Shown here in pieces: positions 1,414 to 48,956 of a DNA stretch of 64,000 nt. The notes beneath the pieces were generated by a model, which did no database searches, had not been told where the DNA came from, and was given only the letters and a program-made list of their open reading frames with translations. Each line of letters opens with the position of its first letter. Position 1 is the first letter of the stretch. Where the stretch lies: positions 1 through 64,000 of the IMG/VR virus record IMGVR_UViG_3300023179_000080. The stretch is one strand, 5' to 3'. The DNA comes from a virus. Made by a program: the position numbers and the translations under genes.

Positions 1414-1506
1414 TCAGAGGGAGAAGAGGACGACCGTGATGATGTAGGTGAGGGCGAGCAGTGCGATGGCCGCGATGAGGTCGCCGAGGAAGCTTTCAGT
1501 GTCCAT
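1414..1506 (-). CDS. 30-aa single-TM peptide (MDTESFLGDLIAAIALLALTYIITVVLFSL), leaderless
   Basis: Not in the ORF track; ATG is 37 nt downstream of TGTGCAAAGT at 1543. Confidence 0.65.
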   Translation of the reverse strand: MDTESFLGDLIAAIALLALTYIITVVLFSL

Positions 1507-1543
1507 GGTTCTACTCTACCCCGCCCCGGGGCAACTTTGCACA
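1507..1543 (-). promoter_or_regulatory. class-A promoter motif
   Basis: TGTGCAAAGT..GGTAGAGT followed by ATG 6 nt later. Confidence 0.75.
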
Positions 1544-1545
1544 GT

Positions 1546-1776
1546 TCAGCAAGGATTATTTCGGTACCACTCGATGAGGCGGAGGATCTCCCCCACCTCA
1601 CTGTCGTCGCAGTCCCGGTAGGACCGGCCCAGGCGGGCCTTCAGCCGCTCCCAGATGTGGGCATGGGGGTTGCGCTTCTTCAGGAACTTGCACGGGGGCA
1701 GCTTGCCCTGCAGGTGGTCCCCCGCCTCCTTCTGCGCGGCACGGACCCTCGCGATGTTCTCGGGTGAGAGTGCCAT
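1546..1776 (-). CDS. hypothetical protein
   Basis: GAGGGG SD-like sequence before ATG; lies directly after the radA-like gene. Confidence 0.7.
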   Translation of the reverse strand: MALSPENIARVRAAQKEAGDHLQGKLPPCKFLKKRNPHAHIWERLKARLGRSYRDCDDSEVGEILRLIEWYRNNPC

Positions 1777-1798
1777 GTTCACTTCCCCTCCCGCCCTC

Positions 1799-2560
1799 TC
1801 ACGACGCCCCGCCGAAGGAGCCCTTCTCGTACAGACCCTGGCGGTTGAGGCCGAGGACGTAGGAGCGCCCCGAGCAGCCGAAGCGGTTCTTGGTGACCTC
1901 GAAGATGCGCTCCCCGTAGGTCTCGCTCTTCTTCTCCTCGTCGATGTAGAGCTGACCGCGGACGTCGACCGCGTGGAGGATGGTCTGCTTGCCGGCGAAG
2001 TCGCCGCCCTTCGTCACCTGGCCGATGAAGCACACGATGCCGTAGTTGGACTTGGCCCAGTCGGTGAGCATCTCGGTCGCGCGGACCGGGGTCATCGAGT
2101 TGGTCGCACCGCCGTACTTGCCGTCGTCCAGGGTCTGGAGGGAGTCCTGGAGGATGAACACCTGCTTGCCGGGGTTCCCCTTGCGGAGCCAGTCGGCGTG
2201 GCTCAGGAGGTCGGTCACGACCGTGTCCTGGCCCACGTTGAAGCCGGCCTTGAGGCCGAGGCGCTCCGTCACCATCTTGACCTGGTAGAGGGACTCCTCA
2301 CCCGTGTTGTAGAGGCACACGTGGCCCGCCTTCGTGATGGCGTCCGCCAGCTGGAGGAGCATCGTGGTCTTGCCGGCGCCGGGGGTACCGGTGAGCATCA
2401 TCACGCTCGAGGGCACCATGCCCTCGCCGCCGATCGCGTCGTCGAACCAGGAGATGCCCACCTTCTTGCGGTCGCGCAGGGCGGCCGGCACCGTGAGTTC
2501 GTTGATGTTGGTGCCGCGCTTCAGACCCTTGATACCGACGTTGAGGTTCATCTTGCTCAT
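1799..2560 (-). CDS. radA: RadA/Sms-like RecA-family ATPase, core domain only
   Basis: Walker A GTPGAGKTT, LYNTGEES, Walker B ILQDSLQ and KNRFG signature; no Zn finger or Lon-like domain. Confidence 0.85.
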   Translation of the reverse strand: MSKMNLNVGIKGLKRGTNINELTVPAALRDRKKVGISWFDDAIGGEGMVPSSVMMLTGTPGAGKTTMLLQLADAITKAGHVCLYNTGEESLYQVKMVTERLGLKAGFNVGQDTVVTDLLSHADWLRKGNPGKQVFILQDSLQTLDDGKYGGATNSMTPVRATEMLTDWAKSNYGIVCFIGQVTKGGDFAGKQTILHAVDVRGQLYIDEEKKSETYGERIFEVTKNRFGCSGRSYVLGLNRQGLYEKGSFGGAS

Positions 2561-2607
2561 TCCTTGTGTTCTCCGTGAGGGGCGGCTCCTTGCCACCTTG
2601 TAAGATC

Positions 2608-2665
2608 ATCATACCACGGCTCCGTGGCGCTTTGCACAGCTTTTCGCTGTTGAAAGTTACTTTCA
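2608..2665 (-). promoter_or_regulatory. class-A promoter with upstream palindrome TGAAAGTAACTTTCA
   Basis: TGTGCAAAGC..TGGTATGAT; palindrome at 2651-2665. Confidence 0.7.
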
Positions 2666-2669
2666 TCTG

Positions 2670-2756
2670 CGGAGGGGGAGGGATTCGAACCCCCGGTGGG
2701 GTCTCCCCCACGGCTGCTTTCGAAACAGCTACCTTAGACCACTCGGACACCCCTCC
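2670..2756 (-). tRNA. tRNA-Ser(CGA)
   Basis: Cloverleaf with long variable arm; anticodon loop TT-CGA-AA; GGTTCGAATCC T-arm. Confidence 0.93.
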
Positions 2757-2777
2757 AGAGTGTTGGGTTGCACGGGA

Positions 2778-3179
2778 TCAGTCGCCCGAGTCGCAGCGAG
2801 TGACGCACTCGTAGACGTAGTAGGAGAACTTGTGGAGCGGGTATGGGTTGCCGTTGTACGGGTTCACCGCCGGCCGACCGGTGGGCTTGCCAGTATCGGT
2901 GTCGATCTCAATGGCCTCGACCTCATCAGCGCCCGAGGGGTCCTGAACCTCGACGAGCGGGATCTTGCGGCCATCGGCGAGGACCTGGGCGGACGAGAAC
3001 TCCTGACCGACCCCGACCAGCCGCGCTGTACGGAGCGCCGTGATGGTCTCAGGGGTGAGGGGAGACGTTGACGTCACCTTGTAGGTCGACTCGTAGTAGC
3101 ACCGGCCCAGCTGGCGGCTGCCTGCGGGTTCGACGGTGAGGGTGGGACGGGGATTGCGCCAGATGATGTTGGTTGCCAT
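2778..3179 (-). CDS. hypothetical protein, leaderless cassette
   Basis: ATG 37 nt after AGTGCAAAGT at 3216. Confidence 0.75.
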   Translation of the reverse strand: MATNIIWRNPRPTLTVEPAGSRQLGRCYYESTYKVTSTSPLTPETITALRTARLVGVGQEFSSAQVLADGRKIPLVEVQDPSGADEVEAIEIDTDTGKPTGRPAVNPYNGNPYPLHKFSYYVYECVTRCDSGD

Positions 3180-3220
3180 GGTTGTAGTATACTCCTTCGT
3201 GGTTGAACTTTGCACTGCCT

Positions 3221-3412
3221 TCAGAACTCAGATCCTGCAACACGCCGCAACTCGTGTAGGATCTGAGATAGTTCACCCACGGTCTCTCGCACGTAGTCCT
3301 GCTGACCCTGTGATACGCCGGGGCCGAGCGTGTCTGTCAGCTGCTCGACACGAGCATGAATCAGAGAACGAATCACGGCGATACCGCGGTTTGAGATGTT
3401 GATGTTCTTCAT
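3221..3412 (-). CDS. hypothetical protein, leaderless cassette
   Basis: ATG 37 nt after AGTGCAAAGT at 3449. Confidence 0.75.
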   Translation of the reverse strand: MKNINISNRGIAVIRSLIHARVEQLTDTLGPGVSQGQQDYVRETVGELSQILHELRRVAGSEF

Positions 3413-3464
3413 GGTCTCAGTATACCACTTTCACTCGTGACTTTGCACTGGGCGGCGAAATTCT

Positions 3465-3773
3465 TCAGGCCCAGGCTTCGTCGTAAGCAGCGAGGATCTT
3501 CACTGCGGCCGGGGTACCAGCCGGGAGGTAGTTGTACACCTCGTCTCGGCCCTCGCGCGCCTCGTAGTAGGCCAGGCCCTGCGCAGTGCGGGTGCCCGTG
3601 CCGTTGAGGGTGCGGAGGCCAGTGGTCACCCCGCGGACCTTGCCGACGGCCGTGATCGTGTACCAGGCAGCCGGGTCGTCCTTCAGGACGAAGACCCCAC
3701 CGACCGCCGGGTTGTCGACGCCCTCCGGGAGGGCCGTGTTGATGAGGGTGCCAGTCTTGGTGAGCGTCTTCAT
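3465..3773 (-). CDS. hypothetical protein
   Basis: Class-A promoter plus leader with AGGAGA SD. Confidence 0.8.
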   Translation of the reverse strand: MKTLTKTGTLINTALPEGVDNPAVGGVFVLKDDPAAWYTITAVGKVRGVTTGLRTLNGTGTRTAQGLAYYEAREGRDEVYNYLPAGTPAAVKILAAYDEAWA

Positions 3774-3833
3774 GATGTTGTCTCCTTGATCCTTACAGTT
3801 CTACTGTACCACTTCGTTGGTGAACTTTGCACT
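3771..3833 (-). repeat. ~63-bp promoter+leader+RBS repeat, copy 1
   Basis: GTGCAAAGTTCACCAACGAAGTGGTACAGT.GAACTGTAAGGATCAAGGAGACAA..TCATGAAG, near-identical to 4103-4165(-) and 4918-4983(+). Confidence 0.9.
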
Positions 3834-4105
3834 CAGTGCTGAACTTTGGCGGCGAGCGCCTTCAGGCGTTCGACCACCTGCTCCGCCTCGGTGATGCGCT
3901 TGCCGAGCCGCTTCACGAAGGCCTTGTGGGCCCGGGCGGTGGTGCGAGCCACCGTGCCGTAGTCGTCCTTGAACTGGGGGAAGAGTCGCCCAGCGATCTT
4001 CAGGGCCGCTGCCTCGTCGGCAGCCTCCACGACTGCAACCTCGACGGTGGCCCAGCGGTGGTCGACCATCTTGAGCGAGTAGTAGGTGGGCGTTGCGTTC
4101 TTCAT
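3833..4105 (-). CDS. hypothetical protein (MKNATPTYY...)
   Basis: Start reassigned to the ATG after the repeated promoter/RBS. Confidence 0.75.
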   Translation of the reverse strand: MKNATPTYYSLKMVDHRWATVEVAVVEAADEAAALKIAGRLFPQFKDDYGTVARTTARAHKAFVKRLGKRITEAEQVVERLKALAAKVQH

Positions 4106-4165
4106 GACCTTGTCTCCTTGATCCTTACAGTTCCACTGTACCACTTCGTTGGTGAACTTTGCACA
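4103..4165 (-). repeat. promoter+leader+RBS repeat, copy 2
   Basis: Near-identical to 3771-3833. Confidence 0.9.
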
Positions 4166-4175
4166 GGTTTCACTG

Positions 4176-4192
4176 TTGAAAGTCACTTTCAA
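4176..4192. promoter_or_regulatory. palindromic operator TTGAAAGTCACTTTCAA
   Basis: Perfect 8-1-8 palindrome just upstream of the leftward class-A box. Confidence 0.75.
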
Positions 4193-4379
4193 TGACGCTC
4201 CCGCGCGGGGCTGCACACCCAGGCAGCCCCGGGGTTCCGGCCGCTGGCCTATCCCGTTGACTCGCAGGGACACTCCCAGCCCCTCCATGGTAGGTATACC
4301 TATAGGGCCATCATGTGGCGCTCTGAGGGCCATTCCTTCAAGGGAAGTTGAAAGAATTACATCGAGGGTGTAATCACTG

Positions 4380-4396
4380 TTGAAAGTCACTTTCAA
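4380..4396. promoter_or_regulatory. palindromic operator TTGAAAGTCACTTTCAA
   Basis: Identical copy just upstream of the rightward class-A box at 4406. Confidence 0.75.
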
Positions 4397-4405
4397 TCGT
4401 GTTCC

Positions 4406-4442
4406 TGTGCAAAGTCCACCTTGAAAAGGGTATAGTAGAACC
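4406..4442 (+). promoter_or_regulatory. class-A promoter, type example
   Basis: TGTGCAAAGT-ccaccttgaaaag-GGTATAGT-agaacc-ATG. Confidence 0.8.
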
Positions 4443-4628
4443 ATGGAAGCCACTCGCACCTCACGAACCTTCGTCCGCAACGGTGACCTCGGCGTCGACG
4501 TCCACATGACCCTCGAGGAAGCCAAACGCATCCGTGCGGCCCTGTCGGACCTGGACGGGGAAGACCTGGGCGCTTATGGTGGAATCCTCGAGGTCCTGCG
4601 GAAGGCCATTCCCCAACAATGGGGTTGA
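4443..4628 (+). CDS. hypothetical protein, leaderless cassette
   Basis: ATG at motif+37. Confidence 0.75.
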   Translation: MEATRTSRTFVRNGDLGVDVHMTLEEAKRIRAALSDLDGEDLGAYGGILEVLRKAIPQQWG

Positions 4629-4669
4629 GCCCAGTGCAAAGTTCAACAGCGAAAGGGTATACTGGAATC

Positions 4670-4912
4670 ATGGACAACATCAAGACTCTCGACGGCTCAC
4701 TCTTTTACTGGTCGGGTCAGGTCGGCACGGCCGACGCCTCGACCCTCGGGTTCGGCCCCGGCGTGTGGCCGCGGGTGATCGCGGTGCGCAGCCCCAAGAC
4801 GGGCAACACGGTCACCTTCGTCAACCAGGGTGTGCGCCTGCTCGAAGACAGCATGCTGTACGCCTCACAGAACCTCGCGACCCCGGTGGTCCTCGTCGTC
4901 GCGAACGACTGA
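4670..4912 (+). CDS. hypothetical protein, leaderless cassette
   Basis: ATG at motif(4633)+37. Confidence 0.75.
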   Translation: MDNIKTLDGSLFYWSGQVGTADASTLGFGPGVWPRVIAVRSPKTGNTVTFVNQGVRLLEDSMLYASQNLATPVVLVVAND

Positions 4913-4917
4913 GACTC

Positions 4918-4983
4918 TGTGCAAAGTCGCCGACGAACGTGGTACAGTGGAACTGTAAGGATCAAGGAGACAAAGTCATGAAG
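4918..4983 (+). repeat. promoter+leader+RBS repeat, copy 3
   Basis: Similar to copies 1 and 2, on the opposite strand. Confidence 0.85.
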
Positions 4984-5208
4984 AACGCCTCTCCCGCCAA
5001 GCTCCTCGAGCTCCTTCGCTCTGGGAACTACACCAACCAACAGTTCTGGTTCGTCCAGGACATCCTCAACCTCACCCCTTCTCGGGACTGGGACGACATG
5101 ATGGTCCGCCTCCAGGCGGCTTGGTGTGACGAGGAGGAACGCAGAATCGCCTCGGGAACCCACATCGGCCCGGGCGCTGACGTCCACAACGGTCGCTTTT
5201 GGGCCTGA
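4978..5208 (+). CDS. hypothetical protein
   Basis: ATG after AGGAGA SD in the repeat. Confidence 0.75.
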   Translation: MKNASPAKLLELLRSGNYTNQQFWFVQDILNLTPSRDWDDMMVRLQAAWCDEEERRIASGTHIGPGADVHNGRFWA

Positions 5209-5249
5209 GCCCAGTGCAAAGTTACCCCCATTCGGGGCAAGGTGTATTC

Positions 5250-5480
5250 GTGACCGAGAGAACATCCTACGAGAAGCTCGACCTCGCCTGGTCTGCACTG
5301 ATCAGCACCCACTCCGCGGGTATGTTCCGCAGCCTCGACGACCCCGAGCGCTATGCACGTCTCGCTGCGAGCATGTGGGCGGCCGAGGCGGACCTGTGCA
5401 TCGTCCATGGCTGGACCCTGCAAGAGTTTACAAACGAAATGCGTCGACGCCGTGCAAAGTCGACCACGAAAGAGGTATAG
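5250..5480 (+). CDS. hypothetical protein, leaderless with GTG start
   Basis: GTG at motif(5213)+37. Confidence 0.65.
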   Translation: MTERTSYEKLDLAWSALISTHSAGMFRSLDDPERYARLAASMWAAEADLCIVHGWTLQEFTNEMRRRRAKSTTKEV

Positions 5481-5487
5481 TGTAATC

Positions 5488-5946
5488 ATGAAGAGCAAAT
5501 CCGCCCGAATCACCCCCTCCGCGAAGCCCTGTGACGTGGAGTACCGCCTCAATCGGCTCAACGCAGTCATCGCGGAAGCGTCGAAGTTCCTCGCGTCGAT
5601 CGACAAGTCGGTCTACCCGGACTGGGAAGATGCGGCCAACGCGCTCAACGCGACGATGGACACAGTCGGCGCCTGGAAGGCCCCGAGCAAGAAGGCCTAC
5701 CGCAAGTCGGACCTCGAGAAGGTCGCGGCTGCAGCGGCTCGGGAGGCCGCCCGTGAAGAGGCACGGGTGAAGCGTGACACGGAACGTGTGGAACGTCTCA
5801 ACACCAAGGCTGCCAAGCTCGCCGCGAAGGCTGAGCCCAAGCCCACGATCGACATGGCTGCGGGTTCGGCGATCGAAAAGGCGATCGCTGCGGCGAAGGC
5901 CCGCAAGGCTGCCCGCATCACCGACCTCGAGGAGGCTGCCCAGTGA
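5488..5946 (+). CDS. Ala/Lys-rich helical protein
   Basis: ATG at motif(5451)+37; SAIEKAIAAAKARKA motif. Confidence 0.75.
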   Translation: MKSKSARITPSAKPCDVEYRLNRLNAVIAEASKFLASIDKSVYPDWEDAANALNATMDTVGAWKAPSKKAYRKSDLEKVAAAAAREAAREEARVKRDTERVERLNTKAAKLAAKAEPKPTIDMAAGSAIEKAIAAAKARKAARITDLEEAAQ

Positions 5947-6182
5947 GCTTCGGATTCAAGCCCAACCCCAAGGCCCAGGTCGAACTCAAGTTCCGCGAGC
6001 TCTTCGGCCGCGAATTCAAGTGCTCGGTCACGGGTGCCCGTGACGGGCGGACCTACCGCACCGCCGTCGCGGTCGAGGGCGAGGTGATCGCCACTGCGTC
6101 GCACAGCGACTGGCGCAAGTCGTACAAGATGCTCGCTCTCGAGATCGAGAAGCTCTTCTCCGAGGGAGTTGCGCTGGTCTAG
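5943..6182 (+). CDS. hypothetical protein, possibly dsRBD-like
   Basis: GTGA overlap with the upstream gene; alpha-beta-beta-beta-alpha-like pattern (inference). Confidence 0.65.
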   Translation: MSFGFKPNPKAQVELKFRELFGREFKCSVTGARDGRTYRTAVAVEGEVIATASHSDWRKSYKMLALEIEKLFSEGVALV

Positions 6183-6245
6183 AGTGCAAAGTCCCTCTCC
6201 CACATGGTACACTGAACTCATCTTCCAAACGAGGAACAAGAACAC

Positions 6246-7352
6246 ATGACCACGATGTCCATCAAGACCTTCACCGCCGTCGCCAACAAGCTCCCCATCG
6301 AGACGTCGATTCTCCTCCGCGGACCGCACGGCATCGGCAAGTCCCAGGTGGTCCGCCAGCTTGCGGCCCAGTTCGGGCTCGAGGTGATCGACCGGCGCCT
6401 GTCGCAGATGTCGGAGGGTGACATGATTGGTCTGCCCTCGACCGACGGCGAGGTGACCCGCTTCAATCCGCCCGAGTGGTACAAGGCTGCGTGCCGCTCT
6501 CCCAGGTGCCTCTTCCTCGACGAGCTGAACCGTGCGACCCCCGAGGTCATGCAGGCAGCGTTCCAGGTCGTCCTCGACCGGGAGCTCAACGGCTGGAAGC
6601 TCCACCCGGCGACCCGTGTGTTCGCGGCGGTCAACGCCTCGGCGGCCTACACGGTCAACGAGATGGACCCGGCGCTGCTCGACCGCTTCTGGGTCGTCGA
6701 CCTCACCCCGACGGTGGCGGACTGGGTGACCTGGGCGAAGGACGGCCACGTGCACGACATGGTGGTCGACTTCATCGCCGGCAACGAGAAGTGGCTCGAC
6801 GCTCCCAAGGACTCCGAGCCCGGCAAGGTGACCCCGAGCCGCCGGTCGTGGGAGCGCCTGTCGGATGCACTCACCGTGGCAGGAATTGTGGAGGATCCCA
6901 AGCACGAGCTCTTCTACCCCATGTGCCTCGGATACGTGGGTACCGAGGCGACCATCGCCTTCCACTCGTTCGCCAAGACGATCGAGAACCAGGTGAGCGG
7001 TGAGGAGGTCCTCAAGGACTACGCCAAGTGCAAGAAGAAGGTCGCGAAGCTCGGCCAAGAGAAGCAGAACGTGCTCATCGAGAAGGTGTCGGAGTACGTG
7101 ACCAAGAGCCTGAAGACCCTCGACGAGAACCAGGGCAAGAACCTGGCTGCCTTCATGAAGGACCTCCCCGGTGAGCTCCGCGTGTCGGCGTGGTCGAAGC
7201 TCACCCAGGGCGCCGGCACGGACAACCTGGAGCTCGCCAAGAGCGTCCACAAGTACTGCGTCGAGACCGTCCTGGAGGTCTTCGGTGTGTCAGCGGATGC
7301 CGCCGTCAAGGCGATCTCGGCGACCGGAGGCAAGAAGGCTGCCAAGAAGTGA
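6246..7352 (+). CDS. MoxR-like AAA+ ATPase
   Basis: Walker A GPHGIGKS, Walker B LFLDELNRA, MDPALLDRF, TPSRRSW. Confidence 0.9.
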   Translation: MTTMSIKTFTAVANKLPIETSILLRGPHGIGKSQVVRQLAAQFGLEVIDRRLSQMSEGDMIGLPSTDGEVTRFNPPEWYKAACRSPRCLFLDELNRATPEVMQAAFQVVLDRELNGWKLHPATRVFAAVNASAAYTVNEMDPALLDRFWVVDLTPTVADWVTWAKDGHVHDMVVDFIAGNEKWLDAPKDSEPGKVTPSRRSWERLSDALTVAGIVEDPKHELFYPMCLGYVGTEATIAFHSFAKTIENQVSGEEVLKDYAKCKKKVAKLGQEKQNVLIEKVSEYVTKSLKTLDENQGKNLAAFMKDLPGELRVSAWSKLTQGAGTDNLELAKSVHKYCVETVLEVFGVSADAAVKAISATGGKKAAKK

Positions 7353-7363
7353 AGGGGTGACCC

Positions 7364-7900
7364 GTGCAGGCATTCGACTCAACCTTGTGGATGGAACGTG
7401 CATGGGCGAGGTATACCCGGGCAGTCCGCCGCGGGGCAAAGAAGCCGAGCCTTGAACCCAGGTGGGCACGGGATGTCACTGCAATCGGAAACCTGGGCAA
7501 GCTGATCGAGTGGTGTGAGGGTCGAGGATTGCAGGTAAAGTTTGCCCGCCGGCCCAACGGCGGCTCATACGAGCATGATGAGAAGATCATCTACCTGTCG
7601 CACCGGGCAGGACCCGAGACCCAAGTGGCATACCTGCTCCACGAGTGTGGGCACCACCTCATCGGCATGAAGGAGCACCACGAGCGATTCGGCATGGGTT
7701 ACCCAAAGTCCGCGGATCCGAGCATTTCCAGGACGATGCTCCATCGGGTCGCAGTCCTCGAGGAGGAACTCGAGGCGTGGCACCGTGGGTGGCGGCTTGC
7801 GGAGCGACTGGGATTGTTCGTGTCCCGCAAGGTGTTTGATCGGATCCGCATGACCTGCATCAAGTCGTATGTGAGCTGGACACTGGGGAGGAGTAAGTAG
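7364..7900 (+). CDS. HEXXH zinc metallopeptidase, ImmA/IrrE-like
   Basis: LLHECGHHL followed by EELEAW. Confidence 0.7.
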   Translation: MQAFDSTLWMERAWARYTRAVRRGAKKPSLEPRWARDVTAIGNLGKLIEWCEGRGLQVKFARRPNGGSYEHDEKIIYLSHRAGPETQVAYLLHECGHHLIGMKEHHERFGMGYPKSADPSISRTMLHRVAVLEEELEAWHRGWRLAERLGLFVSRKVFDRIRMTCIKSYVSWTLGRSK

Positions 7901-8235
7901 TGAACGAGGGCAGAAAGATCATCGAAGACTCACTGTTCATGTCGATGGGTATCGCACCCATCCGCTGCGTCCCAGACGACATGAACAAGGTTCTGAACAA
8001 CCTGCCACCGGACGAGGTCCGGCGGATGAAGCGCAAGTTCAGGAAGTTGTGGCGCAAGTTCGCGAAGCACCCGCATGCGGCTGAGCCGAGGTCGGTCCAC
8101 TTGTGGGTGACCCAAGGTATGGGTCTGGGCGACCCAAGCCCGACGCGATCCGCAAAGGCAAAGCGGAAGGCCGAGGTCCTGCGCCGGGTCCGTAAGAAGT
8201 CGCTTGAGCTGACGGGTGGTAAACAAAGTTGGTAG
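7900..8235 (+). CDS. basic hypothetical protein
   Basis: Coupled to the upstream ORF; GGAG SD. Confidence 0.7.
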   Translation: MNEGRKIIEDSLFMSMGIAPIRCVPDDMNKVLNNLPPDEVRRMKRKFRKLWRKFAKHPHAAEPRSVHLWVTQGMGLGDPSPTRSAKAKRKAEVLRRVRKKSLELTGGKQSW

Positions 8236-8272
8236 ATGGGTGTACTATGGTATCGTGTTCTAGTTATTAGTC

Positions 8273-8424
8273 TTGGTCCTCGCACTAGGGACCAACGTTA
8301 TGGGCAGATGCAGCACGGTGCGGTGACTTGCTCAGTATATATGGACAGGTGAACCATCCTGAGCATCAGGGATCAGTAACCGCCCAACGGGAGACAGGGA
8401 GATGAGAGACCCTGCTCCCGTTGA
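8273..8424 (+). ncRNA. candidate structured non-coding RNA
   Basis: Intergenic run of hairpins, e.g. TTGGTCCT..AGGGACCAA, CCTGA..TCAGG, CAACGGGAG.CAGGG..CCCTG.CTCCCGTTG; no family recognised. Confidence 0.35.
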
Positions 8425-8477
8425 ACTATTTTGCGGCCGGGGTGCAAAGTGACCCTCCCTCCTGGTAGAGTGTTCTC

Positions 8478-8774
8478 ATGGATAGCAATCCCTCCCCCAT
8501 CCTGGAAGAAGTGTTTGGCCCGTTCGCCGTCCCGAACTCGGACGAGGTGATCCCGGTCCGCGGCCTCGAGGTCCACCTCGGCAACGACTGGATTCCAATC
8601 ACGGCGGACGTGTGGCGGTCCTGGACCGGCCGGCGCCGGATCTGGGGGATCGAGCACCACGGGCCGGTGTACGCGGTGGGGACTCAAGACGAGAGCACCC
8701 CCTGGACCGGCGTACGGGAGTGCACATGTGCCACCTGCCAGGCCCACGTGGAGCCCACCCTAAAACCCAACTGA
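8478..8774 (+). CDS. hypothetical protein with C-terminal CxCxxC
   Basis: ATG at motif(8441)+37. Confidence 0.75.
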   Translation: MDSNPSPILEEVFGPFAVPNSDEVIPVRGLEVHLGNDWIPITADVWRSWTGRRRIWGIEHHGPVYAVGTQDESTPWTGVRECTCATCQAHVEPTLKPN

Positions 8775-8814
8775 ACCTGTGTAAAGTTCCCACCCGATGT
8801 GGTAGGGTAGTATC

Positions 8815-9201
8815 ATGAGACGACGACGCAAGGTGGTCACCTGGAACACACCCGAGCCGCAGCGGGAGCTGCGACCTCACCCGTTCCAGGACGAGAACAT
8901 CGTCCCCCCGAGCTTCGACCTCGACGCCCTGGTGCCGGGATCCCTGTGGCTCCTCACGGCGGCGATGAACACGTTTAAGCTGCCTCCGGGCTATGTCACC
9001 CACTCCCACCCGTACTTCACACCGGGGTACTCGTGGGGCAATCCCCCGCCCTTCGCGAAGGGCACACTGGTGGTCTACATGGGCACCACCCGGGTGGAGG
9101 AGTCGAACAATGGTCGCATCCTCCGTGTCAACCGCCACCTGTTCCTCGTCGGCGGAGCGCCGCACATGTTGACGAACCTCAACTACGTCGAGGCGGTGTA
9201 A
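8815..9201 (+). CDS. hypothetical protein, leaderless cassette
   Basis: ATG at motif(8778, TGTGTAAAGT)+37. Confidence 0.75.
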   Translation: MRRRRKVVTWNTPEPQRELRPHPFQDENIVPPSFDLDALVPGSLWLLTAAMNTFKLPPGYVTHSHPYFTPGYSWGNPPPFAKGTLVVYMGTTRVEESNNGRILRVNRHLFLVGGAPHMLTNLNYVEAV

Positions 9202-9234
9202 AGTGCCGCCCCGGCGTGGTACAGTGAGATCACG

Positions 9235-9357
9235 ATGAAACGCCGCTCTCCAACCGCCGTCGCGATGGCGAAGCGCCACCCACGTCCCCAGCGGATGCGC
9301 CACCGCGCCGCACGCCGGCCCAACGACCACCGCAACAAGCAGATCGAGGTAGACTGA
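9235..9357 (+). CDS. 40-aa Arg-rich peptide
   Basis: Follows a class-A motif at 9196; TGATG overlap with the next ORF. Confidence 0.55.
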   Translation: MKRRSPTAVAMAKRHPRPQRMRHRAARRPNDHRNKQIEVD

Positions 9358-9578
9358 TGACAGTTATTGACGTATCCCCCATCAAGCTCGGCTCCTACTG
9401 GCAGTCGCGTACCCGCCGAGGAGAGCAGCGTGTGGTGGTCGAGGACGTGGTCGACGGCCCGGTCAACATCGTGTCGTACAGGGTCGTGGACTCCCACGGA
9501 GAGTGGCGTGCCCTCACGCCTCAAGAGGAGTTCGTACGACGGTTCGAGGAGATCCTCTCTGCAGCAGAGGGTGTGTAA
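9357..9578 (+). CDS. hypothetical protein
   Basis: Coupled ORF ending at the next promoter motif. Confidence 0.7.
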   Translation: MTVIDVSPIKLGSYWQSRTRRGEQRVVVEDVVDGPVNIVSYRVVDSHGEWRALTPQEEFVRRFEEILSAAEGV

Positions 9579-9661
9579 AGTTCCCACCCTACGATGTAGG
9601 GTGAGAGTGTAAGTAAACGCCGCCTCCCGCGGCCCAATGGAAACGGAAACGGAGAATCAAC

Positions 9662-10360
9662 ATGGAAACGCAGAACGTGAGCAACAGTGACAACAAGGCG
9701 ATGAGCGCGATCGAGCGAGCCCTGGCGGCAGCGAAGGCCCGCAAGGCGATGAAGGCAGAGGCCGGCATCACCCACGAGGTGGAGACCGCACCGGAGCCCG
9801 TGAAGGCAAAGGCCCCGAAGCCCAAGGCAGAGAAGCCCGTCGACGAGACCAAGGCCGCCGCGAAGGCGGAGCAGGCCGCGGCCCGTGAGGCCAAGATCCA
9901 GCAGCTCAAGGCCGACCGTGCGGCCCGCAAGGAGGCAAAGGCTGCGGCGAGGGCGGAGAAGGTCGCCGCCAAGGCCGCGACGAAGGGTGTTCGAAAGCCG
10001 GCCCACATGAAGAAGGTGGAGAATGCCCGGGCACGTCTGGCTCCCCTCAACTCCGAGGCAGCGGTGGTCTTCGGCGACATCACGGCCAACTTCAGCGCCG
10101 CGATGATCGACACCCTCGCCCAGCACCTCCTCGTCCACAACCGCGCGGCGGCGACGATCGCGGCGACTGCGGCTCCCCGGCTCCCGGTGGGCGCGCAGGT
10201 CCGCATCACCGGCGGGGATGCTCGGTTCATCGGCATGGTGGGTGTCGTCACCCAGTCACAGGCCCTCCGAGCGATGGTCCAAGTCGACGGGGTGAAGAAG
10301 CCCCTCTACATCTACAACAGCCAGGCCACCGCGGTGGCTGACATGGCGGCTGCGGGTTGA
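9662..10360 (+). CDS. Ala/Lys-rich protein with C-terminal KOW motif
   Basis: Histone-like AK repeats; LPVGAQVRITGG..FIGMVGVV KOW pattern; GGAG SD. Confidence 0.75.
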   Translation: METQNVSNSDNKAMSAIERALAAAKARKAMKAEAGITHEVETAPEPVKAKAPKPKAEKPVDETKAAAKAEQAAAREAKIQQLKADRAARKEAKAAARAEKVAAKAATKGVRKPAHMKKVENARARLAPLNSEAAVVFGDITANFSAAMIDTLAQHLLVHNRAAATIAATAAPRLPVGAQVRITGGDARFIGMVGVVTQSQALRAMVQVDGVKKPLYIYNSQATAVADMAAAG

Positions 10361-10370
10361 TCCCGCTCGA

Positions 10371-10444
10371 GCGGGGGTAGCTCGATTGGACAGAGCAGCG
10401 GACTCTTAATCCGTTGGTTACGGGTTCAACTCCCGTCCCCCGCA
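10371..10444 (+). tRNA. tRNA-Lys(CTT)
   Basis: Cloverleaf; GCGGA-CTCTTAA-TCCGT anticodon arm. Confidence 0.92.
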
Positions 10445-10487
10445 CTGGACCGCCGGTGTTCCCGGACTGTCACCGGCCGGTCCCCTT

Positions 10488-10559
10488 GCCGCCTTAGCTC
10501 AGTGGTAGAGCAACGGTTTTGTAAACCGTAGGTCTCGAGTTCAAGTCTCGACGGCGGCT
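10488..10559 (+). tRNA. tRNA-Thr(TGT)
   Basis: ACGGT-TTTGTAA-ACCGT anticodon arm. Confidence 0.92.
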
Positions 10560-10593
10560 CTGATGAAAGGAATTTGACACACACTAACAGTAT

Positions 10594-10671
10594 GCCCCTG
10601 TACCGGACTCGACTTCTAATCGAGATTACCGTAGCTGGATGACGCAGGTTCGAATCCTGCCAGGGGTGCCA
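10594..10671 (+). tRNA. atypical tRNA-Arg(TCT) with no D-arm and a 19-nt variable region
   Basis: Acceptor stem GCCCCTG/CAGGGGT+GCCA; CTCGA-CTTCTAA-TCGAG; GCAGG-TTCGAAT-CCTGC; only 7 nt where the D-arm should be. Confidence 0.75.
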
Positions 10672-10686
10672 CCCCCACCGGGGACC

Positions 10687-10758
10687 GCGGAGGTAGCTCA
10701 ATGGTAGAGCCCCAGTTTTCCAAACTGGATGTTGCGGGTTCGAGCCCCGTCCTCCGCT
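10687..10758 (+). tRNA. tRNA-Gly(TCC)
   Basis: CCAGT-TTTCCAA-ACTGG anticodon arm. Confidence 0.92.
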
Positions 10759-10764
10759 CACATC

Positions 10765-39781: not shown

Positions 39782-39872
39782 GTTTGTAAATATCATCGAG
39801 TAATCCAACAAATAAAATTCTGTAATTGGATAGTGCAAAGGTCTCTAAACTTGTTTTACTCTTAAAGAGACA

Positions 39873-41334: not shown

Positions 41335-42159
41335 ATGCGACCAACGAAGGTTAGCACAGTTTCTCAACAGTCACCCGCACAAGTCGACACGATCAGCACA
41401 TACTTGAAAGAGCTGAAAGTGTATCCACAGCTGAAACACCCTGAAGTTGTTAGCCTCTTTCAGGCCTATGAAGCAGGGGGAACTGAGGGTGATAAGGCAA
41501 GAAAGAAGCTGGTTGAGTCGAACCTCCGACTTGTGATCTCGATCGCAAAAAAGCAGAAGGGGCACAACATCCCTCTAGAAGATCTAATCCAGGAGGGCAA
41601 CCTGGGACTCCTCAAGGCTGTCGAGCGTTTCGACTGGAAGAAGGGGTTTAGGTTCTCCACTTACGCGACGTGGTGGATCAAGCAGGCCATCAGTCAACAC
41701 GTTCTGAAGCGGAAACGAATGATCCGTCTCCCAGCCCACGCTGCAGGAATCCAGCGTAAGCTGATGCAGGCTTCAAAGGAGTTCCGCGATACCAACGGTT
41801 CAGATCCGACTCAAGACGAGCTTCTGAAGCTTGTCGACGCGTCTGAAACTGTCGTCAAGGCAACGATCGCGTCCAGCAACAACGTTGTTTCTCTTAGCCA
41901 AACTGTCACTTCTGATCCAGATAGCGGTACTTTGGGTGACAGGCTTGAAGACATTGATCACCGGAATGATCCATTTTATAATGTTTCTTCTAAGGAATTG
42001 CTTGGTATTGTCAAGTACGTGCTATCCACTCTTACTGAGAAAGAAGCTGCAATTTTGAAGTTGAGATTCGGAATTTTTGATGAAGACATTGATCGATCAC
42101 AATACATGTTGACGGCTGAAGACACTGCTCAGCTTGAAGCGGGCACGTTGCATGATTGA
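41335..42159 (+). CDS. RpoD-like sigma70 factor lacking the region 4.2 HTH
   Basis: Region 1.2 STYLKE; region 2 [41 protein letters not shown]; region 3 MIRLP; ends shortly after LKLRFG. Confidence 0.9.
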
Positions 42160-42397
42160 AAGTATCACGTATTTTTTGCTGTTGATCATCCTGACTGGAT
42201 GCAACATTTCTGTTTATCTGATGTGCAGAAAAATGTTGCGCTTGCTCGAAGATGCGATGCTGCACACAGATAGCGCAAAGCACAGTATCGAAACTATGCT
42301 CGGGCATGATCCCACAAGCGGTCTCAACACTAGATTGAATGAATTGCAGAAAATGAAATTTTCTTACATGCGCACAAATTCGGGAGGACAACAATGA
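42152..42397 (+). CDS. small membrane-anchored protein
   Basis: N-terminal hydrophobic helix; overlaps the sigma stop codon. Confidence 0.65.
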
Positions 42398-42672
42398 ACC
42401 AGCAGAAATCAACAGCATACGCCACAGTCTCAGATGAGGGTGTCAACTATCGTGAGATTGCAAGCATGATGACTGAAATCGGCTTCAAGATGAACCACTC
42501 TTCTGCACGGAACTACGTGCTTCGAGTAATGAAGAAATTTGCAGAAGCGATCAACAAGGAGTGGAATCTTGAGATACATCCAACAAAACTTGATAAGATA
42601 GTTAAGACGCCACAATTCCAGTCTGCTATCTGTGACATCTTGCAGACCCTGGACGCACATGAGAAAAGATAG
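42394..42672 (+). CDS. HTH DNA-binding protein, sigma4.2-like
   Basis: GVNYREIASMM..MNHSSARNYVLRVMKK; GGAGG SD. Confidence 0.65.
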   Translation: MNQQKSTAYATVSDEGVNYREIASMMTEIGFKMNHSSARNYVLRVMKKFAEAINKEWNLEIHPTKLDKIVKTPQFQSAICDILQTLDAHEKR

Positions 42673-45298: not shown

Positions 45299-45349
45299 GA
45301 TTCAACATCAGCAGTGCAAAGTAACCCATCATGGGTATAGGGTGACAAT

Positions 45350-46687
45350 ATGGAAAGCGTGATTGAGATCCTTGAGGCACTTGAATCTGACAACTCCCGT
45401 AACTTCAAGGAGGAGTTGCTCTCAGACAATCGAAGCAATGATCTACTGAAGAGAGTCTTCGTCGCCGCGGGAGATCCGTACATCAACTTCTACGTCTCCA
45501 AGTTCAAGATGCCGCCGGCGGGCGGCTCTGACGACGACGATAAAGTTGTGAGCGACTTTATCGACAACCTGTATACGCAATTGTCGACTCGGTCTGTGAC
45601 GGGCAATGCTGCAAAGGCATTGGTGAACGACTTGTTTGCCAAGATGACCAACAGTCAGCAGAAGTGGTGTCTCCGCATTCTTCTACGCAACCTGCGTGTG
45701 GGTGCATCGGAGTCACTGGTCGAGAAGACCTGGCCTGGTGCGATCGCCAAGTTCTCAGTCCAGCTAGCAGAATCACTCTCTGCTCGTCACGAGGCGGGCA
45801 AGGGCATCGTCTTGACTGACGACATCGAGTATCCCGTTCGAGTCGAACCCAAGCTTGACGGTCTCCGGTGCATCGCGATCAAGCACAACGGCGCGGTCAC
45901 GATGTTCACACGCAGCGGGTCGGCGATCGAGACTCTTCCCACGATCAAGGCAGCACTCGAGTCTGCTCCGTGGGACGATTTTGTTCTTGATTCGGAAGTT
46001 ATGGGCTCTGACTGGAATGAGTCAGCTTCCGTTGTGATGTCGCACAAAACTGCGAAGAATGACGGCAACATGAAGATGCACGTCTTTGATGCCATGGCCT
46101 TCGACGAGTGGCATGATCAGGAGTCGACCTCAGAATTGACGGAACGGGTCGAACTAGTGAAGGAGTTGGTGTCCACAGTGGACGACGAGCATGTTGTCGC
46201 CGTGGAAGGCAAGACCGTCATCAATCAGGCGGAACTCATGACCTTCTACTCGAAGACGATGGAGAAGGGCTACGAGGGGATCATGATCAAGGACGTCAAG
46301 TCTCCATACGTCTTCAAGCGATCTGACGCAGTGCTTAAGCTCAAGCCTGTGAACACCTACGAAGGCGTGATCGTGGGTAATTACGAGGCCACTCGTGGAT
46401 CGAAGCGTGAGGGGTTGTGGGGCGGTTTCCAGGTCCTGATGCCCAACGGCGTCGTGACCCGAGTGGGCGGAGGCTTCTCTGACAAGTTGAAGGCAGAGAT
46501 CGACATGGATCCAGAGGCGTGGATCGGCAAGATCGTGGAGATGGAAGGTCAGCCCGATCCCCTCACAGCCGACGGTCTCACTGCCGATGGCCGCGTCAGA
46601 TTTCCTGTGTTTGTTAGGGTTCGTGATTCCCGTGATGTTGACAGCAAGGTGATCGATGCCTACAAGAACTACTCGGCTAATAACTAA
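45350..46687 (+). CDS. lig: ATP-dependent DNA ligase
   Basis: EPKLDGLRC, LDSEV, VFD, EGIMIK, LKLK, VGGGFSD, RFPVF; leaderless (motif 45313+37). Confidence 0.95.
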   Translation: MESVIEILEALESDNSRNFKEELLSDNRSNDLLKRVFVAAGDPYINFYVSKFKMPPAGGSDDDDKVVSDFIDNLYTQLSTRSVTGNAAKALVNDLFAKMTNSQQKWCLRILLRNLRVGASESLVEKTWPGAIAKFSVQLAESLSARHEAGKGIVLTDDIEYPVRVEPKLDGLRCIAIKHNGAVTMFTRSGSAIETLPTIKAALESAPWDDFVLDSEVMGSDWNESASVVMSHKTAKNDGNMKMHVFDAMAFDEWHDQESTSELTERVELVKELVSTVDDEHVVAVEGKTVINQAELMTFYSKTMEKGYEGIMIKDVKSPYVFKRSDAVLKLKPVNTYEGVIVGNYEATRGSKREGLWGGFQVLMPNGVVTRVGGGFSDKLKAEIDMDPEAWIGKIVEMEGQPDPLTADGLTADGRVRFPVFVRVRDSRDVDSKVIDAYKNYSANN

Positions 46688-47468
46688 CGCAGCAGTGCTC
46701 ACGTTCATCACTGTCACGGCCGCTACTGAGGCGGCCAGTGAAGTCGATTCATGCCTGTTGGGAATGCGACGGGTGCGAGGCAGTGCGCTTGATCAAAGCG
46801 AGTACATCGGATACCTACAGGACACGACCTGCACTTCGTGGATAAACACCGAATTCCCTGCCCGTTGTGCACATTTCAATCGTGATGCTTGGCTCAAGAT
46901 CACAGCCAAGCTCAATCGTAAATCGATGGACTTCTGTATGGACGTGTATGAGTGGCCCAATCGTCAGGGAGTCGACCCGCTTGTGTACGTCGATTACTAT
47001 GATGCTGTGAATGCATGCACAGCGCTCGGCAAACGTCTGTGCACTGAGGACGAGTGGACGTTTGCCTGCGAAGGTGAGGAGGGACGTCCCTATCCTTATG
47101 GATACGATCGCGACGCGGCTGCATGCAACATTGACCGTGGCTGGATCCAGCCCGATGTCACGAAGCTTGTGGGCAACGGATCGTCGACCAAGACTCAAGC
47201 AGAACTGCGACGTCTGTGGCAGGGTGAACCCAGCGGGGCTCGAGCAACTTGTGTGTCCCCATTTGGGATCCAAGACATGACGGGCAACGTCGACGAGATA
47301 ACTGAAAATTCGCGAGGAACAGGTTACAAGTCAATCCTGAAGGGTGGCTACTGGTCAGTCGTTCGCAACAGGTGTCGGCCGTCAACACGTGTGCACAACG
47401 AGTGGTTCCGCTACTACCAGCTCGGATTCAGGTGCTGTTCTGCCCCATTAGGACACCATTCTACTTAA
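46656..47468 (+). CDS. formylglycine-generating enzyme (SUMF1/FGE) domain protein
   Basis: GKRLCTEDEW..ACEG, DMTGNVDE, KGGYW, GFRCC; start uncertain. Confidence 0.85.
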   Translation: MPTRTTRLITNAAVLTFITVTAATEAASEVDSCLLGMRRVRGSALDQSEYIGYLQDTTCTSWINTEFPARCAHFNRDAWLKITAKLNRKSMDFCMDVYEWPNRQGVDPLVYVDYYDAVNACTALGKRLCTEDEWTFACEGEEGRPYPYGYDRDAAACNIDRGWIQPDVTKLVGNGSSTKTQAELRRLWQGEPSGARATCVSPFGIQDMTGNVDEITENSRGTGYKSILKGGYWSVVRNRCRPSTRVHNEWFRYYQLGFRCCSAPLGHHST

Positions 47469-47651
47469 TCGGGTTATTCTGAGGCCATCTGAGGGTCTTC
47501 GGGGGCCAACAAGAATGGGGTCGACGGACTATAAGGTGCTGCTGTGCAGCATTTGTGCACAGCAAATTGTGATCGACAATTTGTCGTAGACGATTGTATT
47601 TATTTTGACGACACCGTGCAAACTCACGGTCCTCCGTGGTAGGGTATACTC

Positions 47652-48956
47652 ATGATGACACCTTGTGACACCGAGTTCAATCTCGACCGGCACCTCATCT
47701 CGTTCCTACAGGACAACCCGTTCTTTGCGGAACTGAGCCGCCACATCCACAAGTCGCCCACCAAGTCGATCCCGACGGCGGCAGTTGCGTTCAACGAGAA
47801 GACCGACGAGCTCACCCTCTGGTGGAATCCCGAGTTCTTCGGCAAGCTGTCCCAGTGGGAAGTCCGTGGCGTGCTCACCCACGAATTCTACCACCTCGTG
47901 TTCGGCCACCTGTACGGCCGCCGGCGCAATCCGCCCAAGCTGTGGAACGTGGCGACCGACCTGGCCATCAACTCGATCATCATGGGATCTGCCAAGAACG
48001 GCAGCCGCCTCGATGGCGATCGCCCGCTTCCCGAGTTCTGCCTCATGCCCGGCGTGATGCCGAAGCATCCGGAAGGCCGCGATTACACCGACGAGGAGAA
48101 GTCGGCGATGCCGCTCGCGGCGGTGATCGCGAAGCTCCCGACCATGCAGGCGTCGGAGTGGTACTTCGACAAGATCAAGCAGGAAATGCAGGACCAGCCC
48201 GACAACGGCATGGGCCAAGGCGAGGGCAGCCTCGACTCGATGGACGACCACAACGGTTGGGACGAAGTCCCGGACGAACTCCGCGAGTACGTGGAAGGCA
48301 AGGTCAAGTCGATCGTCGAAAAAGCGGCGAAGCACGCCGACTCGCAGGCGAACGGCTGGGGTAACATCCCGGCGGACATGGTCGACGCAATCCGCAAGTC
48401 GGTGTCGTCGGTCATCAACTGGCGCAATGTGCTACGCCAGTTCGTCGGTTCGCTGGTCCGCGGCGGCCGTAGCACCTCGATCAAACGCATCAACAAGCGT
48501 TACCCCTACATCCACCCGGGAGTGAAGCGTGGCTACGAGGCGAAGCTCCTCATTGCGATCGACCAGTCGGGCTCGGTGAGCAACGAGATGCTCGCAGAGT
48601 TCTTCGCGGAGCTCGGGTCCCTCACCAAGAAGGTGACGATCGACGTCCTTCCGTTCGACTGCGAGGCCCATGACAAGGACATCTACACGTGGCGCAAGGG
48701 TGCGAACATCCCGGGCAAGCGAGTCCGCGGCGGCGGCACGGACTTCAACGCTCCCACTCGACTCGCCAACGATCCCAAGAATCGAGGCCGGTGGGACGGA
48801 TTTTTGTGTCTCACGGATGGGGAAGCTTCTGCGCCTATTCCTAGCCGAATTAAGCGGGGGTGGGTCCTTGGCAAAGGTTGTAAACTGCTCTTCAAGACGG
48901 ACGAGATTCAGGTCCACATGACGGACCAGAAGGCCGCAGAGGGTGCCTGGCGCTGA
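47652..48956 (+). CDS. DUF2201-type metallopeptidase with vWA domain
   Basis: HEFYH, WNVATDLAIN, IDQSGS MIDAS, GGGTDF, LTDG; leaderless (motif 47615+37). Confidence 0.9.
   Translation: MMTPCDTEFNLDRHLISFLQDNPFFAELSRHIHKSPTKSIPTAAVAFNEKTDELTLWWNPEFFGKLSQWEVRGVLTHEFYHLVFGHLYGRRRNPPKLWNVATDLAINSIIMGSAKNGSRLDGDRPLPEFCLMPGVMPKHPEGRDYTDEEKSAMPLAAVIAKLPTMQASEWYFDKIKQEMQDQPDNGMGQGEGSLDSMDDHNGWDEVPDELREYVEGKVKSIVEKAAKHADSQANGWGNIPADMVDAIRKSVSSVINWRNVLRQFVGSLVRGGRSTSIKRINKRYPYIHPGVKRGYEAKLLIAIDQSGSVSNEMLAEFFAELGSLTKKVTIDVLPFDCEAHDKDIYTWRKGANIPGKRVRGGGTDFNAPTRLANDPKNRGRWDGFLCLTDGEASAPIPSRIKRGWVLGKGCKLLFKTDEIQVHMTDQKAAEGAWR

Follow-up and report, generated by a model that had tools for sequence, protein, structure and literature searches.

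The early promoters of phage T4 are strong host sigma-70 promoters with an extended consensus of their own. Its middle promoters combine a sigma-70 -10 element with a 9-bp MotA box at about -30 (consensus (a/t)(a/t)(a/t)TGCTTtA, centred at -30) and work by MotA/AsiA sigma appropriation. Leaderless translation in phages has so far been documented mainly for Thermus phages and for single genes such as lambda cI; in the Thermus phage phiYS40, Sevostyanova and colleagues are said to have found in 2007 that middle and late transcripts are largely leaderless. PeSL cassettes are composed of a stem-loop, a sigma-70-like early promoter, a Shine-Dalgarno (SD) sequence and a start codon (Arbiol et al. 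2010, PMC2839356; Comeau et al. 2014, PMC4122927). They cluster in hyperplastic regions of T4-type genomes and are linked to insertions, deletions and exchanges; PmSL variants have also been noted (PMC4122927). Leaderless genes of Deinococcus-Thermus have a TANNNT -10 element adjacent to the open reading frame (ORF), as validated experimentally in Deinococcus (PMC12340547). Here we describe a repeated promoter-like motif in the first 64 kb (64,000 nucleotides, called the window below) of the 74,283-bp IMG/VR virus record IMGVR_UViG_3300023179_000080. With a probability of about 80%, we read it as a family of sigma-70-type early phage promoters in which a 36-bp module is fused to the start codon, giving leaderless mRNAs with one promoter per gene.

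The motif is GTGCAAAGT-N13-G(G/A)-TANNNT-N6-ATG. With at most one mismatch, the pattern GTGYAAAGT-N13-GGTA matched the window 28 times against 0.06 matches expected, and none of 100 shuffles reached 28. A position weight matrix (PWM) was built from the strict copies and used with a threshold score above 16. The top score across 50 shuffled genomes was 15.7, and the window contained 32 sites above 16, all of them above that maximum. These numbers bear out the promoter-like array that had been proposed in an earlier note on this DNA. Every one of the 33 coordinates listed in that note holds a copy, with an offset of 1 because the motif was written there with a leading N. Thirty of these copies are strong; the ones at 12581 and 20031, with a PWM score of about 10, are weak variants, and 26012 has been severed from its -10 element by an insertion sequence (IS). 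Two strong copies, 15840 and 27842, were absent from the list. The -10 hexamer is TANNNT in all 32 PWM copies of the window except 5214, where it is CAAGGT.

The start codon lies exactly at motif position +37 in 24 of the 32 window copies (23 ATG and 1 GTG). It lies at +36 for copy 24029 and at +40 for copy 9196. In the remaining six copies (2637-, 3832-, 4164-, 4919+, 6184+ and 9573+), the start codon is preceded by a leader of about 23-55 nt that contains an AAGGAG or GAGGAA ribosome site. The statement that most copies put the start at +37 with no SD thus stands for 24 of the 32, but not for the two displaced starts or for the six SD-led genes.

The record has a completeness of 23% (CheckV) and represents part of a jumbo-phage genome of roughly 300 kb. 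When IMG/VR was scanned with the exact pattern, 36 loci were found on about 20 contigs, among them records of 211, 213, 278 and 298 kb. The 298-kb relative is a complete genome with terminal repeats, and four relatives (211-298 kb) have a capsid gene for gp23 of the T4 type. By tblastn, the window and its relatives have in common an RpoD-like sigma factor (46-77% identity), an adjacent 92-aa helix-turn-helix (HTH)-like protein and many small cassette genes, together with a MoxR ATPase, a KaiC-like ATPase, a DNA ligase and a vWA-like protein. For about half of the cassette ORFs, no homolog turned up among the fetched relatives. Because gp23 is present in the relatives and these genes are shared with the window, we assign the phage, on gene content, to an uncultured T4-type jumbo lineage. 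No close cultured relative was found among 50,697 phage records by blastn of positions 4000-11900 or by tblastn of two structural/ATPase proteins, which gave only tRNA and generic AAA matches. The RtcB protein is 60-64% identical to its counterparts in jumbo phages of Pseudomonas, Ralstonia and Caulobacter, a match that does not help to place the phage.

To compare copies across the lineage, we collected GTGCAAAGT with at most one mismatch and TANNNT 15 nt later from the window and the fetched relatives; the ATG was not used in the selection. Among the resulting 280 unique copies, of which relatives supply about 250, the first ATG was found at position 37, 6 nt past the hexamer, in 234. Of 233 unique exact boxes, 192 are followed by G[GA]TANNNT after 13 nt, and none after 12 or 14. 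An interval of 13 nt equals a 17-bp spacer for TGCAAA or an 18-bp spacer for GTGCAA. With the A of the ATG numbered +1, the box GTGCAAAGT occupies -36 to -28 and is conserved at 0.92-1.00 per position across the 280 copies. Outside the box, the consensus is A-18 (0.90), G-14 (0.93), R-13, A-3, C-2, C-1 (0.89) and A+1; T-12, A-11 and T-7 were imposed by the pattern used for selection. Most of the spacer and the hexamer interior (-10 to -8) vary freely. The discriminator is 6 nt long, with the consensus AGAACC, and has no SD-like sequence.

The ATG at +37 is the true start, since the G/C periodicity of third codon positions sets in at this ATG and ortholog matches in tblastn start from residue 1. 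Both boxes and their geometry are retained in orthologs at 40-90% protein identity, while the spacer differs. As one example, the box, the -10 element and the +37 start of ORF 24523-25257 are kept in six of seven relatives, whose orthologs are 44-50% identical. Since boxes and geometry are kept while the spacer diverges, the comparison points to purifying selection on the two boxes and their spacing, and not simply to recent duplication.

The free interior of TANNNT, G-14, the 17/18-bp spacing and a Y-1/R+1 pair 7 nt past the hexamer make up the signature of a sigma-70-family holoenzyme. From this signature and the geometry, we infer that transcription starts at the A of the ATG. A holoenzyme starting there would produce an mRNA without 5' untranslated region and SD, which would be translated leaderless. 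G-14 and R-13 would act as an extended -10-like element, and the 9-bp box overlaps the position of a -35 element. Only three of six positions match TTGACA in either register, a consensus that may differ from the -35 preference of the host. The earlier note had described a non-canonical -35 with a sigma70-like -10. The -10 element is indeed of the sigma-70 type, but the "-35" is only partly non-canonical, since GTGCAA with an 18-bp spacer fits nTGnnA of TTGACA. No promoters of E. coli consensus and no terminators were enriched in 1-20 kb. Compared with internal segments, the first 40 nt of the predicted mRNAs are less stably folded (-4.8 vs -9.8 kcal/mol) and have a lower GC content (0.50 vs 0.63).

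Leaderless mRNAs, as proposed in that note, are the natural reading of the sequence and of the comparison, as there is no SD between the -10 element and the ATG; the proposal does not extend to the six SD-led copies of the window. The further idea, that leaderless translation could outlast a shut-off of SD-led translation, found no support, because the same promoter class also drives the six window genes with AAGGAG or GAGGAA leaders. It is also weakened by gene 4978-5208, which is SD-led here and leaderless at +37 in two relatives (L010 and L031 orthologs, 88% and 79% identity), and no shut-off factor was identified.

The promoters are packed closely with the genes. In 16 of 30 successive window pairs, a gene ends between 29 nt inside the next promoter and 6 nt ahead of it, and in the relatives the next box is at most 10 nt from the stop in 87 of 184 cases. 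Within the dense arrays, a stop lies 0-6 nt ahead of the next box and no hairpin or T-run was found between them, so transcripts must read through into downstream cassettes. On such a read-through transcript, an internal AUG without SD would be a poor start, and each gene would need its own promoter. The need for a 5'-terminal AUG would thus account for arrays with one promoter per gene. The term "single-gene cassette" used previously suits the dense arrays, but downstream of several promoters there are at least two genes, or tRNA genes. The 220 unique leaderless ORFs of the relatives have a median length of 74 aa. Larger enzymes start at +37 as well, namely RtcB, DNA ligase and a DUF2201 vWA-like protein. 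These three had been named in the earlier note and are confirmed by Pfam. The promoter at 28083-28118(+) (PWM 38) precedes the RtcB RNA ligase gene 28119-29336 (Pfam RtcB 3e-129), and that at 45314-45349(+) (PWM 19) precedes the ATP-dependent DNA ligase gene 45350-46687, whose ortholog in L038 keeps the +37 start. The promoter at 47616-47651(+) (PWM 26) precedes the gene 47652-48956 for the DUF2201 metallopeptidase/vWA-like protein, of which three orthologs have weaker boxes at +37.

Read-through RNA carrying the motif must exist in arrays without terminators, and the phage encodes RNA-repair enzymes such as RtcB. The motif might then act in RNA, as a processing site or a translation enhancer that exposes each AUG within long polycistronic transcripts. 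We regard this as very improbable. The motif as RNA has no structure beyond that of shuffles (mean z +0.35), no conserved structure was seen, and there is no SD-like or other rRNA-complementary sequence. Two boxes, an exact hexamer spacing of 17-18 bp, TANNNT and the Y-1/R+1 pair are specific to DNA recognition by sigma-70. Moreover, the copies that head each divergent arm have no upstream transcript from which they could be processed.

Cassettes are permuted between related phages. The order of shared cassettes differs among the window and the relatives G001, G002 and G004, and the number of promoter copies per genome ranges from 8 in the complete 298-kb relative to at least 31 in G004. Two genes, 4978-5208 and the MoxR gene, are leadered in one phage and leaderless in another. 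Near-identical modules would supply homology for recombination, by which cassettes could be gained, lost and reordered. The permuted order and the variable copy number would also be expected if the repeat were mainly a recombination or mobility site, like integron attC or PeSL, with its promoter likeness secondary. Identical promoter-plus-leader modules stand on both strands before different genes (3832-, 4164- and 4919+), and PeSL elements have been proposed to act in this way (PMC4122927). However, conservation in the motif follows sigma-70 contacts (T, A, T, G-14, fixed spacing, free spacer) and not uniform homology, and each copy points along its own gene, locked to the ATG. Neither an integrase nor an attC-like inverted repeat was seen beside the arrays, and the motif is without secondary structure. 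We therefore consider a mobility site improbable as the main function; recombination is better taken as a consequence of many near-identical promoters.

The genes behind these promoters differ in codon style from the rest of the window. Their G+C content at third codon positions (GC3) is 0.82, vs 0.49 for other window genes. Codons AAA, ACA, GGA, TTA, ATA and AGA/AGG make up 0-9% in cassette genes vs 10-43% elsewhere. The 10 phage tRNAs are mostly for A-ending or AGR codons (Lys-AAA, Thr-ACA, Gly-GGA, Leu-UUA, Ile-AUA and Arg-AGG). In the relatives, the cassette ORFs have a GC3 of 0.79, and that of gp23 ranges from 0.49 to 0.75. The split in codon style follows regions, for example 1-20000 and 24000-30000 on one side and 20000-24000 and 30000-64000 on the other. 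A near-absence of the codons served by phage tRNAs is expected of genes that are translated before these tRNAs accumulate. It suggests that early genes are tuned to the tRNA pool of a high-GC host and that later genes are served by the phage tRNAs. The G/C-ending codons of the cassettes would fit immediate-early expression from the host pool. A chimeric assembly was considered as the source of the GC mosaic and rejected: the relatives share the arrangement, and the low-GC part also has promoter copies (45314 and 47616).

The lineage encodes two proteins that bear on which factor reads the box. The phage RpoD-like sigma (41335-42159(+)) matches only regions r2 and r3 in Pfam. Its alignment with primary sigmas runs from region 1.2 to 4.1, and the protein ends where the recognition helix of region 4.2 begins; it is a candidate alternative reader of the -10 element. 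Its length is the same in the relatives, and the gene order orf40989 - sigma - HTH - orf42679 is conserved. The HTH-like protein of 92 aa (42394-42672(+)), encoded two genes downstream of sigma, is a candidate reader of the 9-bp box. It has 30 homolog loci, and 21 homologs share its segment GFKMNHSSARN-V-R without change. The sigma and HTH genes are of the low-GC3 style and close an operon headed by a variant promoter at 39833-39872(+) (GTGCAAAGG...TACTCT, with a 4-nt leader). This GTG(C/T)AAAG(G/A) variant, about 2.3 kb upstream of the HTH gene, is syntenic in six relatives.

Several observations weigh against host-read early promoters that give leaderless mRNAs. With about 16 bits, the box exceeds a typical host -35 in information, and the spacer has a conserved A-18; such features are commoner in promoters read by a dedicated factor. 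A conserved phage sigma without the helix that reads a -35, together with an adjacent invariant HTH protein, could read the promoters. Finally, the leaders of 6 of the 32 copies show that the module does not serve leaderless expression exclusively. On balance, we favour the host primary sigma as the probable reader of the box, with modest confidence; the main alternative, a phage-encoded factor, appears distinctly less likely.

The motif could, for instance, mark phage-private middle promoters, where the helix-less sigma reads G-14 and TANNNT and a separate phage protein, most obviously the 92-aa HTH protein, reads the box in the manner of MotA or of a "split sigma". A sigma with regions 1.2 to 4.1, no 4.2 recognition helix and a conserved length and gene order would fit this arrangement. 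So would the invariant HTH segment, the near-invariant 9-mer with its conserved spacer positions, and the box-like half-site GAAAGT of a palindrome beside some promoters. We nevertheless hold it to be unlikely, though a serious competitor. The low-GC3 sigma and HTH genes lie behind a variant of the same promoter, and that copy must be read before their products exist. The codon usage of the cassettes suits expression before phage tRNAs accumulate. The distant fragments G005 and G006 keep the HTH helix nearly unchanged but have no arrays of the GTGCAAAGT box; G006 has GTGAAnnnn in the same geometry. The AlphaFold2 model of the HTH protein (pLDDT 87) gave no significant match in the PDB, to a sigma-4 or any other fold (Foldseek E at least 3; VIA best Z 4.2). 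The relative G001 (211 kb, 65% complete) has at least 23 promoters but no sigma match, which is to be read with its incompleteness in mind. For covariation between box and HTH protein, the almost invariant recognition segment of the 21 homologs offers too little variation; G005 and G006 give a hint only.

Searches for other transcription proteins covered the window and four relatives. There was no match to the Pfam family RNA_pol_Rpb2_6, for which positive controls worked, although very divergent phiKZ-type subunits could escape. No match to a T7-type RNA polymerase was found, in a search run without a positive control. MotA_activ and AsiA (Pfam) gave no match, and neither did their controls. 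The most far-reaching version would be a phage-private expression system, in which a helix-less sigma is completed in trans by the 92-aa HTH protein reading the box, and about 30 or more leaderless genes per genome bypass both host promoter recognition and SD recognition. From the sequences at hand we judge it doubtful, more so than the phage-private promoters as such. To our knowledge, no split primary-type sigma has been described.

The window copies form two divergent arms at the left of the window and several arrays further right. The divergence point lies at 4176-4396, flanked by palindromes TTGAAAGTCACTTTCAA (4176 and 4380), each just upstream of a box; in the relatives, too, the palindrome stands beside boxes. 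The first copy of the leftward arm is the promoter at 4129-4164(-) (PWM 39), with the 23-nt SD leader CTGTAAGGATCAAGGAGACAA before ORF 3833-4105 (90 aa). It is followed by the promoter at 3797-3832(-) (PWM 39), whose conserved 23-nt leader CTGTAAGGATCAAGGAGACAA... places the ATG of ORF 3465-3773 (102 aa) at +60. Next come 3413-3448(-) (PWM 36; ORF 3221-3412, 63 aa) and 3180-3215(-) (PWM 34; ORF 2778-3179, 133 aa), both with the ATG at +37; tRNA-Ser(cga) at 2669-2756 lies downstream of the latter. The promoter at 2602-2637(-) (PWM 16) has a leader with an AAGGAG SD and precedes ORF 1799-2596, a KaiC/RecA-like P-loop ATPase by Pfam, whose orthologs in the relatives are leadered too. Further along lies the promoter at 1507-1542(-) (PWM 33), with the ATG at +37 of ORF 1414-1506 (30 aa).

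The rightward arm begins at 4407-4442(+) (PWM 39) with the ATG at +37 of ORF 4443-4628 (61 aa), a position kept by orthologs (56-90% identity) in four relatives. The promoter at 4634-4669(+) (PWM 36; ORF 4670-4912, 80 aa) has the same geometry. That at 4919-4954(+) (PWM 37) carries the 23-nt SD leader CTGTAAGGATCAAGGAGACAA before ORF 4978-5208 (76 aa). The weaker promoter at 5214-5249(+) (-10 CAAGGT, PWM 21) precedes a GTG at +37 (ORF 5250-5480). The next one, at 5452-5487(+) (PWM 40), lies within the end of this preceding ORF and has the ATG of ORF 5488-5946 (152 aa) at +37. The promoter at 6184-6219(+) (PWM 34) is followed by a 26-nt leader (GAGGAA) and the MoxR-type AAA ATPase gene 6246-7352 (Pfam AAA_5), the orthologs of which are mostly leadered, with one leaderless. 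The promoter and the 23-nt SD leader, about 60 nt in all, are identical at 3797-3832(-), 4129-4164(-) and 4919-4977(+), and the genes behind them differ. The 4919 copy is inverted relative to the 3832 and 4164 copies, a potential substrate for inversion or exchange.

Further copies with the ATG at +37 stand at 8442-8477(+) (PWM 29; ORF 8478-8774, 98 aa) and 8779-8814(+) (PWM 33; ORF 8815-9201, 128 aa). The copy at 9196-9231(+) (PWM 32) has the ATG of ORF 9235-9357 (40 aa) at +40. The promoter at 9573-9608(+) (PWM 29) has a leader of about 53 nt and precedes ORF 9662-10360 and then a tRNA array at 10371-11359. Single copies with the ATG at +37 are found at 14087-14122(+) (PWM 25; ORF 14123-14377, 84 aa) and at 15840-15875(+) (GTGAAAAGT, PWM 24; ORF 15876-16061).

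A dense array at 17764-19087(+) contains five promoters (17764, 17989, 18175, 18638 and 19052; PWM 33-41), all with the ATG at +37, and orthologs keep this geometry. Its ORFs are 17800-17961, 18025-18192, 18211-18633, 18674-19048 and 19088-19246, and the next promoter lies from 18 nt within the preceding ORF to 27 nt past its stop. The array at 24029-24522(+) has three promoters (PWM 31-40), one at 24029 with the ATG at +36 and two, at 24274 and 24487, with the ATG at +37. They precede ORFs 24064-24267, 24310-24486 and 24523-25257, and a palindrome at 24000 precedes the array. The copies at 25738-25773(+) (PWM 23; ORF 25774-26007, 77 aa), 27842-27877(+) (GCGCAGAGT variant, PWM 24; ORF 27878-28078) and 29413-29448(+) (PWM 27; ORF 29449-29787, 112 aa) all have the ATG at +37. 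A weak variant at 53659-53694(+) (GTGAAAAGT...TATCTT, PWM 9.7) has its predicted +1 2 nt before tRNA-Leu(taa) at 53697-53775. A tRNA-Ile(tat) follows, and the tRNA-Leu might need almost no 5' processing.

Some promoters, at array boundaries and at the divergence point at 4.2-4.4 kb, have the 17-bp palindrome TTGAAAGTnACTTTCAA immediately upstream (2650, 4176, 4380 and 24000). It is conserved in the relatives L010, L015, L026, L033, L044 and L051. Its half-site GAAAGT resembles CAAAGT of the box and the spacer element GAAAG. The palindrome could be an operator for a phage regulator or a vestige of a PeSL stem-loop.

At 26013-26028(+) an orphan box GTGCAAAGT is separated by a TnpB-type IS from its -10 element (TAGTGT-GGGACC, at about 27220). 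The IS, within 26013-27225, carries a TnpB-like ORF at 26038-27129 on the minus strand and has a GC content of 47%. When the flanks are rejoined across it, they read box-N13-CA-TAGTGT-GGGACC. As a clue to the host, its TnpB had no close copy in 185,579 species genomes (best match 30% identity), and a search of the endolysin atlas gave only generic phage, Pseudomonadota and Cyanobacteriota clusters. A low-GC gene resembling GIY-YIG/NUMOD3 homing endonucleases, at 29744-30640(-), lies at the right edge of the promoter-rich region.

Many low-GC genes without SD have an AT-rich box (such as ATAATAGTTA, AATACTTA or ATAATTTA) that ends 4-8 nt before the ATG. Such sites were found at 31274, 34542(-), 35026, 36032, 37477(-) and 40865 and, in the rest of the genome record, at 70295(-). 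They look like a second class of start-adjacent promoters, similar to T4 late promoters.

If the transcripts do start on the AUG, most early accessory genes of this lineage would run from a 36-bp module that combines promoter, transcription start and translation start. As a phage expression cassette, this would be the most compact one known. It would also explain why each tiny gene has its own promoter, offer a simple mechanism for the shuffling of ORFans between phages, and add leaderless translation to the T4 superfamily. The rigid geometry is already an aid to annotation: it pins down start codons and brings to light genes of 30-60 codons overlooked by gene callers. The module is a candidate minimal portable expression element. 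Which factor reads the 9-bp box matters for understanding how RNA polymerase is programmed by phages whose sigmas are truncated.

The components of this module are already known: phage-specific early promoter consensus sequences, PeSL cassettes and leaderless mRNAs. The literature searched yielded no description of their rigid fusion in 36 bp with dozens of copies per genome in T4-type jumbo phages. T4 early promoters are alike in their dozens of copies, in an information content above that of host promoters and in serving small host-takeover genes right after infection. However, T4 early mRNAs are leadered and have an SD. T4 middle promoters share with the motif a normal -10 element and a phage-specific 9-bp box in place of the -35, in a T4-type phage. 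In the window the box has another sequence and lies at -36 to -28, 15 bp from the -10 element, and the lineage encodes an RpoD-like sigma without the 4.2 helix.

The leaderless promoters of Deinococcus-Thermus and phiYS40 likewise have TANNNT at a fixed few nucleotides before the start and no SD, and transcription and translation starts coincide there, as is predicted here. Those promoters are mostly without a conserved -35, whereas the motif has a rigid 9-bp box, belongs to a T4-type lineage and is arranged in tandem arrays with one promoter per tiny gene. Closest are the PeSL cassettes. In both systems many near-identical early-promoter modules stand among small ORFans in variable regions of T4-type genomes, the consensus is specific to each phage group, and genes are gained, lost and reordered between relatives, seen here as permuted cassette order. 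The differences are that 28 of the 32 window copies have no palindrome upstream (only 4 have TTGAAAGTnACTTTCAA) and no hairpin is enriched, that 24-26 of the 32 have no leader or SD, and that the -35 part is the 9-mer GTGCAAAGT, unlike TTGACA, TTTACW or TTGYVH. Since the stem-loop and the SD, two defining features of PeSL, are lacking in most copies, we class the module as a leaderless, mostly stem-loop-free variant of PeSL cassettes and not as a member of that family.

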